DNA from: a virus
Direction: 5' to 3' (one strand)
Length of the DNA: 64,000 nucleotides
IMG/VR virus record: IMGVR_UViG_3300043185_000099
Coordinates: 87,956-151,955 of that record
Shown piece by piece: positions 35,465-41,340 of the stretch. Position numbers and translations under genes: made by a program. The notes under the pieces were generated by a model that searched no databases, was not told the origin of the DNA, and saw nothing but the letters and a program-made list of their open reading frames with translations. Numbering within the stretch: position 1 is the first letter of the stretch; each line of letters starts with the position of its first letter.

Positions 35465-35511
35465 GCAGCCCGTCATCTCCGACGCCTCCACCAACGCAAA
35501 GCATGTGTACC
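35465..35511. other. Left attachment junction (B half + TC core + P arm)
   Basis: + strand ...CCGACGCC-TC-CACCAACGCAAAGCATGTGTACC; the junction reads like a tmRNA/tRNA-Ala 3' end (CGCCTCCACCA). Confidence 0.8.
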
Positions 35512-37254
35512 CGGGTCCGAAACGGGCTTGGATCGGTCGCAGGACGATCCAAGCCCGTTCACGGGTCCGAGGGCGTCACTCAGGATCGGCACCAGCGATC
35601 CTGAGTTCGCCGCCTCGCCACCGCCGCCCGGGCCTCCGCACGCGCCCATGTCGAGAAGGTCCAGCACGCCGAGCCGCGTGTGGGCGACGTAGTACGGCCG
35701 GCCGATGTCCGGGTACTGCGGCTCGAGCTTGACCTCGCCGAGCAGCTTCCGCAGCGCCAGCGCGGACGGGGTCGCGTGGTCCTCCAGCAGCCCGCGGAGG
35801 TTTCGCAGGCGGTCCTCCACCCACTCGATGGGCGGCGCCCGGAACACGCTCTCGTGGACCGCGCGCATGCTAGCGATCTCGACCTTCAGCTCCTCGACAC
35901 GGGTCTCGCTCGCCTGGATCGCCTTGGCGAGCGCGAGGCTGCCGCGTCCCTCTGCGACGAACTCCACGAAGTTCGAGAGACGTCGTTCCTCGGCTCCGAG
36001 ATCGGCCTCCTTGAGCCGCAGCTTCTCCGGTCCATCACCGCACTGTTTGCGCACCTCCTCCTCCACCTTGCGAAGGACGGCGTGGACCGCATGCGGCGTC
36101 GAGATCGTCTCCTGGACCGCGGCGACGACGACGCGCTCCAGCAGCTTCCTCTGGACGCGCACCGCGTTGGAGCATCCGTGGCGCTGACGCATGCGGCATC
36201 CGTAGTAGCCGCCCTTCTTCCCGGCGACCAGACCGATGCCGGCCCCGCACACGCCACACTGGAGCGTTCCGGAGAACAGGTGAGTCGGGTAGTGCTCCTG
36301 CCGAGTGCCCTGCGCCTTCGAGAAGCCGCGCTGTCCCGGCGCACCGGGCCACGTCTTGTGGCGCTCGGCGCGAAGGCGCTGCACGCTGTCCCAGAGAGCT
36401 TGCGGCACGATGCGGAGCGCCTCGTCCTCGACGGTGATCCACTCGGACGTCGCCTTGGCCGCGTGACGTTTCCTGCCGCTCCGCGGGTCTCGGCGCGTCT
36501 CCGTCTTGTTCCACGTCCACTTCCCGATGTACTTCTCGCGGCCGAGGATGCGGGTCACCGTGGACGGCGACCATCCCGAGCTGGTGCGGTAGCGGCCGGG
36601 CGTCTTGGTCTCGTTGAGCTTGCGGCAGATGCCCGGCAAGCCGTGGCCGTTCACGTACATCGTGAAGATCTGCAGGACCACCGCGGCCTCGCGGGCATCG
36701 ATCTCCATCCGATATCCGTCCGGACGCGGACGCCCCTTCTTGTCCACCCTCGTGTCGCCCACGGGGACGGAGCGGTAGCCGAAGGTAGCCTCGCCGCAGA
36801 AGTAGCCGCGCTCCTTCTGCCCGCGCTGGCCTCGCAGGGTCTTCTGCTTGAGATCCCGCAGCGCAAGCTCGTTGAAGATGCCGCGGATCTGGATGCCGAG
36901 CGTCGCCTCGGCGTTCTGCGTGTCGAGCCCGTCGGCGACGGAGACGACGCGGACGCCCGCGAACTCCAGCTCGGCCATGAGCGTGAGCATGAGGTAGTTG
37001 TCTCGGGCGAGGCGGCTAAGGTCGTCGACGAGCACGACCTCGAACTGCCGAGCGTGCGCGGCGGCCTTGAGCCTCTCCAGGCCCGGGCGGTCCCACTGCG
37101 CCCCGGACCGCGCCTCGTCCGAGTAGACGTGTTCCTCCAGGACGTTGAACTCGCGCTGCGCCGCGAGGCGACGGCACGACGCGACCTGGTCCGTGATGCT
37201 CTCCGGGCGCTGGTTGTCCGAGCTGTAGCGGGCGTAGACGGCGGCTCTGATCAT
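35473..37254 (-). CDS. Large serine recombinase/integrase (593 aa in the integrated state)
   Basis: MIRAAVYARYSSDNQ (catalytic Ser); VDDLSRLARD; recombinase domain; Zn ribbon (LFSGTLQCGVCG...YYGC...C); coiled coil. ATG at 37254 in an ATGA overlap. Confidence 0.95.
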   Translation of the reverse strand: MIRAAVYARYSSDNQRPESITDQVASCRRLAAQREFNVLEEHVYSDEARSGAQWDRPGLERLKAAAHARQFEVVLVDDLSRLARDNYLMLTLMAELEFAGVRVVSVADGLDTQNAEATLGIQIRGIFNELALRDLKQKTLRGQRGQKERGYFCGEATFGYRSVPVGDTRVDKKGRPRPDGYRMEIDAREAAVVLQIFTMYVNGHGLPGICRKLNETKTPGRYRTSSGWSPSTVTRILGREKYIGKWTWNKTETRRDPRSGRKRHAAKATSEWITVEDEALRIVPQALWDSVQRLRAERHKTWPGAPGQRGFSKAQGTRQEHYPTHLFSGTLQCGVCGAGIGLVAGKKGGYYGCRMRQRHGCSNAVRVQRKLLERVVVAAVQETISTPHAVHAVLRKVEEEVRKQCGDGPEKLRLKEADLGAEERRLSNFVEFVAEGRGSLALAKAIQASETRVEELKVEIASMRAVHESVFRAPPIEWVEDRLRNLRGLLEDHATPSALALRKLLGEVKLEPQYPDIGRPYYVAHTRLGVLDLLDMGACGGPGGGGEAANSGSLVPILSDALGPVNGLGSSCDRSKPVSDPGTHALRWWRRRR

Positions 37255-37436
37255 GATGGCTCCTGATCGTCTCCAGACGGTTCTGCGGAACTCTTGAGGG
37301 CGGCGCGCTCCATCAGGATGACATACTCCCGGGCGAGCAGCGTGGCGAGGTGGTCGAGGAACTCCTCCACGGCGGCGTCGAGTGCCGGGTCCGCGGTGAC
37401 GGTGGCGAGAGACGTGGGCGTGTGCTGGTGGCGCAA
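37251..37436 (-). CDS. Small helical protein translationally coupled to the integrase (candidate accessory/directionality factor); start uncertain
   Basis: ...DPALDAAVEEFLDHLATLLAREYVILMER...; its stop overlaps the integrase ATG. Confidence 0.5.
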   Translation of the reverse strand: MRHQHTPTSLATVTADPALDAAVEEFLDHLATLLAREYVILMERAALKSSAEPSGDDQEPS

Positions 37437-37452
37437 CTCGGGCTTGTCCGTG

Positions 37453-37474
37453 AGTCGCCACCGCGGTGGCGACT
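37453..37474. promoter_or_regulatory. Perfect 22-bp palindrome upstream of the integrase operon
   Basis: AGTCGCCACCG-CGGTGGCGACT. Confidence 0.6.
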
Positions 37475-37598
37475 GGACCCTCCCAGTACAATCCGCGGAG
37501 CGCTTTTTTATGCCCATATCAAAGCCGACGCCGACATGATCTTCCTCATGCCCGGCGGGACTGGCAGGGGCGGGGCTCGGCCGGCTACCATCCTCCCC

Positions 37599-39779: not shown

Positions 39780-40151
39780 ATGACGCGGTTCCGTGTTGTG
39801 GCGCTCGTGCTCGGCCTCGCCATCGCGTGGGCCTGCAGCGACCGGACCGTGGACGACGTGGACGAGGAGGCGCTGTGCACCGAGCGGTGCGGATGGCAGC
39901 TCGACCCGGAGTGCGGCGTCGAGGATCCGGGCTACGACAGCGTGGCCGAGTGCGTGGACGTTTGCGCCGCGGACGACGATCAGGGCTTCGCCTGGGGCGA
40001 GTGCACCGACCTCCACGTCGCCTACTACGACTGCCTCCGCGGACTCACTTGCGAGGAGCGACGCGTCCACTTCACCGACGTGCTCAACTCGCAGTGCTTT
40101 GAGGAACAGAACGATCTGACCCATTGCTCGGCGGAGGCGAACAGACCATGA
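39780..40151 (+). CDS. Cys-rich acidic lipoprotein (123 aa)
   Basis: Signal peptide with lipobox (AWAC); CxxxC pairs in the style of myxobacterial lipoproteins. Confidence 0.75.
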   Translation: MTRFRVVALVLGLAIAWACSDRTVDDVDEEALCTERCGWQLDPECGVEDPGYDSVAECVDVCAADDDQGFAWGECTDLHVAYYDCLRGLTCEERRVHFTDVLNSQCFEEQNDLTHCSAEANRP

Positions 40152-40867
40152 CGCACCATGCTCGACTTCCATTCCTCGCCATGCTCACCGCGACCTCGAC
40201 CTGCGTGATCGACGATCAGAACCCGCCCATCGAGTGCATCGGGCGCGAGTGGGGGCGCCGCGTCGCCGACGTGTCGTGCACGGTCGAGGGTGTGCCGGCC
40301 ATCGTCCCGGGCAGCGGCATCAACAACATCATCTTCGGCCGCGGGTGTCTGGACCTGCCGGTCCACGCTGTGATGCTCGCCGTCCTGGAAGGGTCGCCGC
40401 CTTCGGATATTTTCCTGCAGACCGACGCGATCTTGAAGGCCCGTACTCTCGACGCCTGTCAGGCCGCGGCCGCAGTCTGCGATCCGGGATCCGACGGATG
40501 TGCCGCGGCGGTCGAGGAGCTGGAGCTTCCCCTCAACTTCGACCAGATCTGCCAGGTCCCGTGCGATCAGATCATCACCCTTGAAGGTGTGGGCGTCACC
40601 GGCGGCGTCACCGAGGGTGGCGGCGAGGTGATCCGCAAGTTCAAGGGAGCACGAAAGCTCTGCGAGTCGAGCTACTTGGTCGAGACCGATCTCGACGCTG
40701 ACGCTGTCTACGAGACCCTCGTCACGAAGTTGACGAGCCTTCGCGGCAAGCCCGAAGGCGCGGTCTTCAAGAAAGACGAACGGCTCTACGTGGTCCCGGT
40801 GCGAGCGCGGGTCGTGGGCTTCGGGATCAAGGCGACGAACGACTGGCTCAATGCGCGCGCCCTGTAG
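40148..40867 (+). CDS. Cys-rich secreted protein or lipoprotein (239 aa)
   Basis: ATGA overlap with the previous gene; MTHHARLPFLAMLTATSTC signal-like N-terminus. Confidence 0.7.
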   Translation: MTHHARLPFLAMLTATSTCVIDDQNPPIECIGREWGRRVADVSCTVEGVPAIVPGSGINNIIFGRGCLDLPVHAVMLAVLEGSPPSDIFLQTDAILKARTLDACQAAAAVCDPGSDGCAAAVEELELPLNFDQICQVPCDQIITLEGVGVTGGVTEGGGEVIRKFKGARKLCESSYLVETDLDADAVYETLVTKLTSLRGKPEGAVFKKDERLYVVPVRARVVGFGIKATNDWLNARAL

Positions 40868-41051
40868 CATGGCGGAAAGCCGACTTCGCCTTCTCTCCCG
40901 GCCTGCGCTTGCGTTCTCCCGGTTCTTCTGGGGGCTGCGGTGGCATGGTCGGCTCAAGCGCCTTGAGGAGCGTCCAGAGAAAGTTCCACTCCGAGATCCT
41001 GTCGGCCTTGATGGTGAAGGTGCGGGCGTCCTGATCGATCTTCAATCTCAT
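40848..41051 (-). CDS. Small hypothetical protein (67 aa; MRLKIDQDARTFTIK...)
   Basis: Protein-like composition, directly downstream of the HTH fragment; weak RBS. Confidence 0.4.
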   Translation of the reverse strand: MRLKIDQDARTFTIKADRISEWNFLWTLLKALEPTMPPQPPEEPGERKRRPGEKAKSAFRHATGRAH

Positions 41052-41064
41052 CTGGACGTCACCA

Positions 41065-41319
41065 TTACCGTTGTCCCCGCCCGCGCTTCCTTCGGGCCTT
41101 CCGGTCGGCCGCGCCCTCGCCTCTGGCCCACCCGATGGCATCCTTGGCGGTCTTCCACTCCACCCCGAGCCGGCGCGCGATCTGCGTGACCGGCAGGCCC
41201 AGCTCCGCGAGGTGGGCGGCGCGCTCGGCGAGTCGCTCGTACATCGGCTGCGGGCCCTGGCAGACGACCGGGATCGCGAGATCGATCGTCGCGATGGTAC
41301 GCATGGTTTGGGTACGGGT
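41065..41319 (-). CDS. Detached C-terminal HTH domain of the integrase (84 aa; TRTQTMRTIATID...LGLPVTQIARRLGVEWKTAKDAIGW)
   Basis: Begins exactly at the right att core and is in frame with the integrase after excision. HTH motif QIARRLGVEWKTA. Confidence 0.75.
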   Translation of the reverse strand, partial: TRTQTMRTIATIDLAIPVVCQGPQPMYERLAERAAHLAELGLPVTQIARRLGVEWKTAKDAIGWARGEGAADRKARRKRGRGQR

Positions 41320-41340
41320 CCGCGACCATGAGACAGAAGG
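41296..41340. other. Right attachment junction (P arm + TC core + B half)
   Basis: + strand GGTACGCATGGTTTGGGTACGGG-TC-CGCGACCATG; its outer 18 bp match the left arm as an inverted repeat at 15/18 positions. Confidence 0.8.

Follow-up and report, generated by a model that had tools for sequence, protein, structure and literature searches.

Does a serine integrase gene that lies at the edge of a mobile element encode the same enzyme when the element is integrated and when it is circular? The question is raised by a locus in a 64,000-nucleotide stretch of viral DNA (positions 87,956 to 151,955 of IMG/VR record IMGVR_UViG_3300043185_000099; hereafter the window), part of a large phage-like genome, for which an initial annotation had placed the attP site inside the integrase gene and had proposed that excision adds an HTH domain in frame. 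The gene (35473..37254, minus strand) encodes a large serine recombinase (LSR) of 593 aa, as annotated; it is contained in a minus-strand open reading frame (35473-37491) with an ATG at 37254, and its product starts MIRAAVYARYSS. Pfam matches to Resolvase (2.3e-28, residues 4-150), Recombinase (6.6e-24), and Zn_ribbon_recom (1.5e-08) were obtained, along with 622 homologues at 55-62% identity, and an alignment of 23 homologues showed that R9, Y10, S11, and S12 (RYSS), R16, and four cysteine residues are invariant. The protein has the domain series of an LSR: a resolvase-type catalytic domain with its nucleophilic serine, a Recombinase domain, and a zinc ribbon with an embedded coiled coil. Its C-terminus is ...GTHALRWWRRRR (i.e., ...RWW-RRRR), in which the last four codons and the stop (35473-35487) are supplied by flanking DNA.

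The mobile element that contains this gene was assigned to 35488..41319 (minus strand, 5832 bp) from the homology of its ends to those of related elements, its att arms, and a shift in G+C content. Its boundaries fall within a 2-bp core, GA on the minus strand, at 35488/35487 and 41320/41319; GGA alone is common to both junctions, so the crossover must lie within those three bases. Joining 35488 to 41319 generates the 5832-bp circle foreseen by the annotation, with a single open frame of 673 aa that reads ...HALRWW-TRTQTMRTIATID... across the joint. The two 23-nt arms at that joint, GGTACACATGCTTTGCGTTGGTG (35511-35489) and CCCGTACCCAAACCATGCGTACC (41318-41296) on the minus strand, are inverted repeats around GA that match at 17 of 23 positions and, in their outer part, at the 15 of 18 originally reported. 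As in the attP sites of LSRs, approximately 50 bp is made up of two imperfect inverted arms and a 2-bp non-palindromic core. The P arm (35489..35511, minus strand, attL side) encodes ...GTHALRWW and has 19/23 identity to the family P arm GGTTCGAATTCTTTGCGTTGGTG, the P' arm (41296..41318, minus strand, attR side) encodes TRTQTMRT and has 17/23 identity to the family P' arm, and both arms differ from the family consensus in mirrored fashion at positions 4, 7, and 10. The inverted repeat lends no support when taken alone, because an 8-kb scan of this G+C-rich region returned 1053 inverted pairs, many of them longer; the 2-bp core and the in-frame join, for which the prior is about 1 in 3, are weak evidence too. 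The split acquires significance only because the relatives of this element show position-for-position alignment of the arms and the same layout.

Homologous loci, 80 in all, were found in many phyla, most of them at the extreme 3' end of a tmRNA or tRNA gene. In these loci the integrase frame runs antisense into the RNA gene, such that the C-termini of the homologues consist of ...GSNSLRWW and then residues read antisense from a tRNA-type 3' end; in most of the 80, ARAGORN identified a tmRNA, tRNA-Ala, -Met, -Glu, or -Ser gene exactly at that end. The crossover of the family is 5 nt from the 3' end of the RNA gene, and the core shared at tmRNA sites is at most 7 nt (TGGTGGA). The family normally inserts into the final 5 bases of tmRNA or tRNA genes, supplying CACCA and so rebuilding the 3' end of the RNA. 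Measured from the core, the T-arm motif GGT[TG]CGA is at 23 nt in the P arm (30/35 loci) and at 18 nt in the tmRNA arm (24/35 loci), in keeping with the rule for serine integrases that attB has its outer, zinc-ribbon motif about 5 bp nearer the core than attP does (PMC11722253), and the T-arm probably serves as the motif for the zinc-ribbon domain of this family. The 5-bp shift is not seen at the target in the window. Neither the B' arm (35464..35486, minus strand) nor the B arm (41321..41343, minus strand, 90 nt downstream of the stop of a 208-aa ORF at 41409-42035), both in flanking DNA, has the B-type motif at 18 nt, the B' arm agrees with the tmRNA antisense consensus at only 10/23 positions, no better than chance, and ARAGORN and Rfam detected no tmRNA gene in the flank. 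The copy in the window occupies a non-canonical, non-tRNA site and, because its target has no B-type motif and resembles the tmRNA end only at chance level, we infer integration here by its own enzyme solely from the intact P and P' arms.

These results bear on whether the block is a discrete element with these ends at all, as the arms could have arisen by chance and the integrase could belong to a larger island or to the phage itself. The chance level of the inverted repeat would fit that explanation, as would the outcome of the search, suggested in the annotation, for the circle junction and the empty site. Neither was found in contigs of the only sequencing run that holds the element, where an independent assembly yielded the integrated form alone, on one 35-kb contig, and a related contig (L082) provides no clean empty site because the entire stretch 34173-42125 is missing there. 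We nevertheless judge this explanation very improbable: both ends match the family arms position for position, mirrored changes included; the predicted core is precisely where the integrase and the C-terminal extension cease to resemble their relatives; the G+C content changes at both ends (0.63-0.73 inside versus 0.58-0.62 outside); and 5832 bp is within the 2.7-11.6 kb range of related elements.

Further evidence comes from relatives in which the two parts of the gene are joined. The annotation had suggested a search for homologues of the extension, hereafter the tail, fused to serine recombinases after a WW motif or located at far ends of islands, and both arrangements were found. In L003, L069, L071, L086/L109, L089, L091, L095, L096, L100, and L101, recognizable integrase C-terminal sequence passes WW and enters the tail without a change of frame; in about 20 loci the tail is found at the far end of the element, upstream of the integrase gene and in the same orientation. 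The frame is unbroken at every attP-like junction that is preceded by integrase sequence, and in L003 the junction forms a nearly perfect palindrome. L069, with poorly symmetric arms, has the only complete fused gene (626 aa); at most other attP-like junctions the fused gene lacks its N-terminal part or is interrupted by the end of a contig. The structural model of the L069 protein (mean pLDDT 86, with 94-97 in the HTH part) matches the SPbeta, phiC31, and Bxb1 integrase structures at E values of 1e-17 to 1e-14 and shows long paired helices after the ribbon. The relatives' arms and junctions support the proposal that attP is inside the integrase gene, and the fused genes support its corollary that integration removes the HTH tail while excision or a tandem junction restores the frame. 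With attP (two 23-bp arms and a GA core) inside the coding sequence, between ...RWW and TRTQ..., the 673-aa enzyme with its C-terminal HTH would be encodable only by the circle or by a tandem-copy junction, and the integrated element encodes the 593-aa enzyme, whose last few codons come from flanking DNA. We consider it very probable that the locus is an integrated 5.8-kb element of this kind, with its tail split off and the longer enzyme specific to the circle.

The detached tail (41065..41319, minus strand, 84 aa) was recognized by homology that starts at the junction, by its profile, and by its HTH. It consists of 8 P'-arm codons, a 19-aa linker, the HTH, and a basic end. A profile search recovered 2501 cluster representatives at E<=1e-3. 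Pooled pN/pS values for the tails were 0.63 in the linker, 0.57 in the HTH, and 0.98 after the HTH, ratios that are compressed because pS is saturated. The tail might alternatively be an independent small gene, for a regulator or an excisionase-like protein, that abuts the att site and is in frame with the integrase by coincidence. Gene callers report the tails as ORFs of 70-170 aa, the window has the two ATGs noted in the annotation (at tail codon 6, 41304, and at 41406, two bases past the stop of the upstream gene), and at many junctions an intact tail persists beside a mere remnant of the integrase gene. An independent gene is improbable, however, given that homology among the tails extends back to the junction itself (query residue 1), upstream of any start codon, that no start codon is conserved (in 22/36 tails the stretch from the junction to the HTH lacks an ATG, and in 8/36 it lacks ATG, GTG, and TTG alike), and that the integrated copies L028 and L060 have a TGA directly before the junction; the continuous frame at attP-like junctions argues in the same direction. 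The missing start codons and the stops that precede the junction also weaken the earlier suggestion that the detached tail acts in trans. Tails that are kept beside integrase remnants could still have a value of their own. The thousands of small "HTH proteins" encoded beside tmRNA genes are likely to be detached integrase tails that mark the ends of islands.

Besides the integrase, a single ORF is conserved among the ORFs of these elements. It encodes a small one-helix protein (37251..37436, minus strand; approximately 61 aa, with an uncertain start) and its stop overlaps the integrase ATG (ATGA). The motif LLDH[ILV]A.ELA.EYV.LME.AA is present directly upstream of the integrase gene in about 38 loci. 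The predicted complex of this partner with the integrase scored 0.69, compared with 0.00 for the best of three controls; that mark is reached by 58/80 solved complexes and 2/110 mismatched pairs, counts that hold only roughly here because the alignments used were our own. At least 63% of the contacts agreed between runs and the pLDDT of the partner was at least 59. The predicted interface lies on either side of the coiled coil, at integrase residues 380-405 and 462-506, and the partner is thus predicted to bind at the coiled-coil base, the same region that is bound by the SPbeta directionality factor.

The core module of the element would comprise the small helical protein, the translationally coupled LSR, and, at the far end, the last 84 codons of the same LSR gene. 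With the tail present in one state and absent in the other, the behavior of the enzyme may depend on the physical state of the element, and the two forms may differ in directionality, targeting, or autoregulation, as the annotation had supposed. In the version that we prefer, the small protein would be a directionality factor-like partner that is always made along with the integrase, the circle-only tail would counteract it or otherwise favor integration, and the tail-less integrated form together with the small protein would be the excision enzyme. Topology would set the direction, the tail canceling in cis the effect of the co-translated helix protein, so that the circle form integrates and the integrated form excises with no regulated factor; we advance this account tentatively, as possible rather than probable. 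Alternatively, the split may be real while the tail takes no part in recombination; the tail could be a transcription-regulator domain (e.g., for autorepression from the circle), or its loss on integration could be a tolerated by-product of the position of attP. In line with such a role, every standard LSR domain lies upstream of the junction and is kept in the 593-aa form, the codons that replace the tail vary with the target, and the HTH is of a generic type (HTH_23 in 19/34 members and Sigma70_r4_2 in 7/34). Against it, the tail and linker are equally conserved across phyla and always start at the junction, and the linker of the L069 fused-protein model contains a beta strand and is not a free tether. 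A recombination-neutral tail is conceivable but falls short of being probable, and regulatory and recombination roles are compatible with each other.

The integrases of phiC31, Bxb1, SPbeta, and LI/A118 resemble that of the element in domain order, fold, 2-bp core, quasi-palindromic attP, and the 5-bp shift of the outer motif, as well as in a small partner at the coiled-coil base, which for the element is a prediction. They differ in having attP outside the gene, the same protein in both states, and a directionality factor that is expressed separately. TnpX (Tn4451/Tn4453) and TndX (Tn5397) are LSRs of small circle-excising elements with a GA crossover dinucleotide, and a promoter formed at the circle joint changes recombinase expression with state; there the circle alters transcription and not the protein C-terminus. 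Partial precedents in layout are DsiB, Mx8, and SSV1. DsiB belongs to the Dehalococcoides ssrA-specific islands and is a serine recombinase that inserts at the tmRNA gene (McMurdie et al. 2011, BMC Genomics 12:287, PMC3146451). The dsiB gene is at the island edge, where it overlaps attL and antisense ssrA, and the authors suggested that it may be fully functional only on the circle or beside another island; the islands occur in tandem stacks, and an unusual tRNA-like gene is part of their modules (PMC3146451). That a serine integrase gene can overlap attP/attL at ssrA had already been noted for DsiB (PMC3146451). Our family shares the recombinase gene at the island edge over attL and antisense tmRNA, although the flank in the window is not tmRNA, and this likeness is judged from the published description of DsiB. 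DsiB inserts in the T-loop with a 20-bp direct repeat, whereas the family crossover is 5 nt from the 3' end; the families of its six-gene module (DsiB, DsiA, RecF-like, ParB, Mom, and a large primase-like protein) are absent from the ORFs of the element; that module includes a second small serine recombinase, DsiA, whereas the module of the element has the one-helix partner; and no conserved HTH tail is described for DsiB. The integrase gene (IntP/IntX) of the myxophage Mx8 contains attP, so that integration replaces the 3' end of the gene and alters the enzyme (PMC6070905; cited in PMC4383910), but this enzyme is a tyrosine recombinase, whose chemistry differs and whose core is long, and no HTH is exchanged. 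Integrase genes of the archaeal SSV1-type fuselloviruses also contain attP and are partitioned upon integration into a tRNA gene (PMC4383910); the SSV1-type gene is split in its body into two fragments, whereas the element keeps a complete enzyme minus an add-on domain. The tyrosine catalytic domain of the SSV1 and Mx8 enzymes is absent from the serine recombinase of the element, and the likeness is one of layout only.

What makes a serine integrase integrate or excise is a key question, both for the field and in genome engineering. The answer known so far is a directionality factor that is expressed separately, and a state-dependent enzyme would be a different kind of control. As of 2015, serine integrases were not known to target tRNA genes (Islander paper, PMC4383910); this family shows that they do target tRNA and tmRNA genes, with the T-arm apparently read as the outer motif, which would explain the movement of the family between distant phyla. 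If the reading in which topology sets direction is true, the family offers a ready-made integrase for the tmRNA 3' end, a target present in nearly all bacteria. One of the loci, L077, is in the cultured strain Geomesophilobacter sediminis Red875, which provides an experimental entry point.

The remainder of the element is cargo. The ORFs at 38014-38502 and 38499-39371 (minus strand) and at 39780-40151 and 40124-40867 (plus strand), which together span 38014..40867, are not conserved in related elements and matched no Pfam or PHROG family; the 162-aa ORF gave a weak AbiEi-like match (1.9e-05) and the 290-aa ORF a marginal PbeC match (8.4e-04). A tRNA-like gene with an 8-nt anticodon loop (CUCUACAC) was identified at 37866..37939 (minus strand) by ARAGORN and by Rfam (tRNA, 60.2 bits, with a gathering score of 29) and was not found inside the other elements examined. 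Two strong hairpins are located just inside the element end (35512..35611, plus strand), where the fold of 35486-35625 has an energy of -71.9 kcal/mol (z = -5.25, 0/200 shuffles as good); they fall in an insertion of about 45 aa, relative to homologues, in the integrase linker.

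A minus-strand open reading frame at 35473-37491 holds a 593-aa protein (ATG at 37254) that contains the three large serine recombinase Pfam domains, Resolvase, Recombinase, and Zn_ribbon_recom, and that ends in ...GTHALRWWRRRR*. An 84-codon tail frame with weak HTH matches lies at 41065-41319 on the same strand (-). When position 35488 was joined to 41319 by script, a 5832-bp circle and a single open frame of 673 aa (...RWW-TRTQTM...) were obtained. The 23-nt arms flanking the GA core matched as an inverted repeat at 17 of 23 positions (15 of 18 in their outer part). The G+C content was 0.63-0.73 within the element versus 0.58-0.62 outside. 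The gene end, arms, circle, and in-frame 673-aa product described in the initial annotation were thereby all recovered on recheck. Taken alone, the arms, the core, and the in-frame join are no more than chance, because the same 8 kb contain 1053 inverted pairs, a 2-bp core is uninformative, and the prior for an in-frame join in stop-poor DNA is approximately one in three. Many of the 1053 pairs are longer than the arms of the element, and the inverted repeat was rejected as stand-alone evidence. A promoter and terminator scan of 35300-37900 yielded nothing exceeding shuffles.

Homologues of the integrase numbered in the hundreds (55-62% identity, mostly ∼571 aa), and their C-termini commonly read ...GGSNSLRWW followed by RRRESNPRP and similar strings, which are the 3' end of a tRNA-type gene translated antisense. 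Eighty loci were retrieved from genomes across many phyla, including Solirubrobacterales, Acidobacteriota, Gemmatimonadota, Myxococcota, Arenicellales, Binatia, Methylomirabilota, and one cultured Geomesophilobacter. Exactly where the integrase frame ends, ARAGORN placed a tmRNA gene in most of these loci and tRNA-Ala, -Met, -Glu, or -Ser in others. The family junction sequence is TGGTG-GA-GGCGGCGGGAATCGAACCC, so that the RNA regains its 3' end through the CACCA that the element supplies. In the element arm, the motif GGT[TG]CGA has a spacing of 23 nt to the core at 30 of 35 tmRNA-adjacent loci; in the tmRNA arm, the spacing is 18 nt at 24 of the 35. An outer motif displaced by 5 bp is the known signature of attP versus attB for this enzyme class (PMC11722253). 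The difference in spacing independently fixes the core position and shows the T-arm to be the motif that is recognised. Subfamilies at tRNA-Met (loci L045, L054, L018, L043, and L078) and tRNA-Glu (loci L041, L048, L049, L067, and L076) have differing arms and core that are matched to the acceptor end of the target, and the core of the tRNA-Met group is GG. The loci L025 (7519-10281) and L037 (8977-11656) hold minimal members of ∼2.7 kb, an insertion-sequence-like size, with little beyond the small ORF, the integrase, and the tail. The cultured strain Geomesophilobacter sediminis Red875 has a further member (locus L077, 42% identity) at its tmRNA gene and offers a possible experimental system.

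The far ends of these islands carried the HTH homologues that the initial annotation had asked about: a tblastn search with the 84-aa tail placed them on the strand of the integrase gene, upstream of it, in ∼20 loci, with alignments beginning at query residue 1, the predicted junction, in a family whose elements span 2.7-11.6 kb. The far-end DNA, ...GG/ACNCGNNCGCAAAGAATTCGAACC, mirrors the arm on the integrase side. Upstream of the junction, integrated copies have a short frame that shows no relation from one locus to the next, and in loci L028 and L060 TGA directly precedes the junction. An ATG between junction and HTH is absent from 22 of the 36 distinct tails, and 8 of the 36 have no ATG, GTG, or TTG in that interval. 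The proposal that the detached tail acts alone as a separate protein is a weak one for the family, although the window has an ATG at 41406, two bases after the stop of the upstream gene. Pooled pN/pS values were 0.39, 0.63, 0.57, and 0.98 for the arm-encoded codons, the linker, the HTH, and the region after the HTH, respectively, with the ratios compressed by saturation of synonymous sites. At E<=1e-3 a tail-profile search returned 2501 cluster representatives, and at E<=1e-10 it returned 806, most of the matches being called ORFs of 70-170 aa in which the tail begins 5-60 residues in. Five of the matching proteins (P0176, P0207, P0233, P0241, and P0251; 500-818 aa) contain 8-11 separate tail-profile stretches and may be repeat proteins of the tail HTH or frames through stacked junctions.

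Fusion of integrase and HTH after the WW motif, about which the initial annotation had also asked, was found both in genomes and in metagenome contigs. The integrase frame continues through WW into the tail at stacked-element junctions in loci L003, L071, and L069. Metagenome contigs scanned exactly with the attP-type pattern gave 30 contigs; a recognisable integrase C-terminus runs in frame into the tail in L086/L109, L089, L091, L095, L096, L100, and L101, and many others of the 30 retain just arm and tail. Most of the fused genes at attP junctions are N-terminally truncated or cut by the contig end. The Vicinamibacterales chromosome of L069 carries a complete fused gene of 626 aa (MRRAAVYCRYSS... 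to HTH), and its AlphaFold model (mean pLDDT 86; 94-97 in the HTH) has a predicted beta strand in the linker and a short disordered stretch before WW, and matches the solved structures of the SPbeta, phiC31, and Bxb1 integrases. A search of longer proteins with the tail gave three matches, one of them the 553-aa product of L096, and provides no count of fused forms, as long proteins crowd the word index. We conclude from the junctions of relatives, the far-end tails, and the fused forms that the structural reading of the window was right: attP lies within the integrase gene, the tail is split from it, and both the layout and the split are conserved.

Compared with those of the family, the arms of the window copy are identical at 19/23 and 17/23 positions, and three departures from the consensus (positions 4, 7, and 10) are mirrored in both, as expected of two arms read by one and the same protein. 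The window target site holds no tRNA-type gene, and the B-type motif is absent from both arms of this target. A resemblance of the target to a tmRNA end was considered and found unsupported (10/23, a level reached by 8% of window 23-mers), with the match confined to the inner 8 nt (7/8). Two strong hairpins at 35512-35611 (+; z = -5.25) lie inside an insertion of ∼45 aa in the integrase linker, immediately following the CACCA that a tRNA-type gene would receive from the element, and could end or process a transcript reading in from the target RNA gene. The sole sequence common to the two window junctions is GGA, so the crossover is confined to those three bases. Exact searches of viral contigs with the 22-nt empty-site pattern ATGGTCGCGGAGGCGTCGGAGA and with the attP-type pattern gave no match, and terminal overlaps indicating a circular contig were present in 0 of the 30 metagenome contigs. 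One freshwater metagenome, the only run with the window DNA, probably its source, and kept as contigs, was searched as well; a single contig carries the integrated form, and neither the 35487-41320 join nor the circle junction occurs in any contig of that run, which is evidence neither way. The joints listed in that run were dismissed as noise, their sides being just 20-29 nt. No relatives of the 208-aa flank gene were found among viral contigs. The 819-aa flank gene led to L082, the only related viral contig found, syntenic on both sides at 80-84% nucleotide identity, which at 7798-8001 is without the whole window stretch 34173-42125 (7.9 kb), and with it the 208-aa ORF and the initial third of the 819-aa ORF, and offers no clean empty site; the element thus sits in a variable region. 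Since neither an empty site nor a circle was found, we infer integration at the window site by this element from its intact arms.

A small ORF directly upstream of the integrase (37251-37436 (-) in the window), often overlapping its start (ATGA), was present in ∼38 loci and encodes one conserved helix with the motif LLDH[ILV]A.ELA.EYV.LME.AA. The predicted complex of the small protein with the integrase scored 0.69 versus 0.00 for the best of three controls, a mark that 58 of 80 solved complexes and 2 of 110 mismatched pairs attained (counts that apply just approximately, given that our own alignments were used); contacts were at least 63% consistent between runs, and the pLDDT of the partner was at least 59. 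The prediction supports binding of the small protein to the integrase and puts its helix against residues 380-405 and 462-506, where the chain leaves and re-enters the coiled coil. The SPbeta integrase is bound by its directionality factor at the zinc-ribbon domain and at the segments that form the coiled-coil base. Because its predicted contact sites resemble these, we regard the small protein as a candidate directionality factor. In locus L006 (9791-11713) the small upstream ORF and the integrase share one frame with no stop between, possibly a natural fusion of partner and enzyme.

The initial annotation had taken the two enzyme forms for a switch, and we infer that they behave differently. 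If the partner were always made with the integrase, something else would have to distinguish integration from excision, and the tail is the sole part differing between the two states. That the tail counteracts the partner in cis is a tentative and rather doubtful proposal; we give similar weight to the alternative that the tail is a regulator domain, or that its loss on integration is tolerated.

No description of an attP-split serine integrase gene with a detached HTH tail was found in the literature searched. The closest likeness noted is to the serine-recombinase islands at ssrA in Dehalococcoides, in which dsiB overlaps attP/attL and might be complete solely on the circle (McMurdie et al. 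2011; PMC3146451). Unlike the present family, the DsiB islands have a T-loop insertion, a 20-bp repeat, and a different module, and no conserved tail is described in that report (PMC3146451). In Mx8 (PMC6070905) and SSV1 (PMC4383910) attP also lies inside the integrase gene, but those enzymes are tyrosine integrases. According to the Islander paper, no serine integrase was known to use tRNA genes as targets (PMC4383910).

The cargo ORFs belong to no Pfam or PHROG family; a weak AbiEi-like match (1.9e-05) and a marginal PbeC match (8.4e-04) were recorded. The cargo includes a well-formed tRNA gene at 37866-37939 (-; Rfam 60.2 bits) with an 8-nt anticodon loop, CUCUACAC, and no other family element examined carries a tRNA gene as cargo. 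The Dehalococcoides ssrA islands also have an odd tRNA-like gene (PMC3146451). The host record, filed as viral at 151,955 bp with the window as its final 64 kb, looks like that of a very large phage and has giant ORFs without known families. Those at 2210-13132, 16158-21518, and 43796-51238 (-) encode 3640, 1786, and 2480 aa, respectively, with no Pfam family at 1e-05. A 707-aa ORF at 54244-56367 (-) matches both Volactin, an actin-like family (5.8e-64), and an intein splicing domain, and may represent an actin-like gene that carries an interrupting intein.
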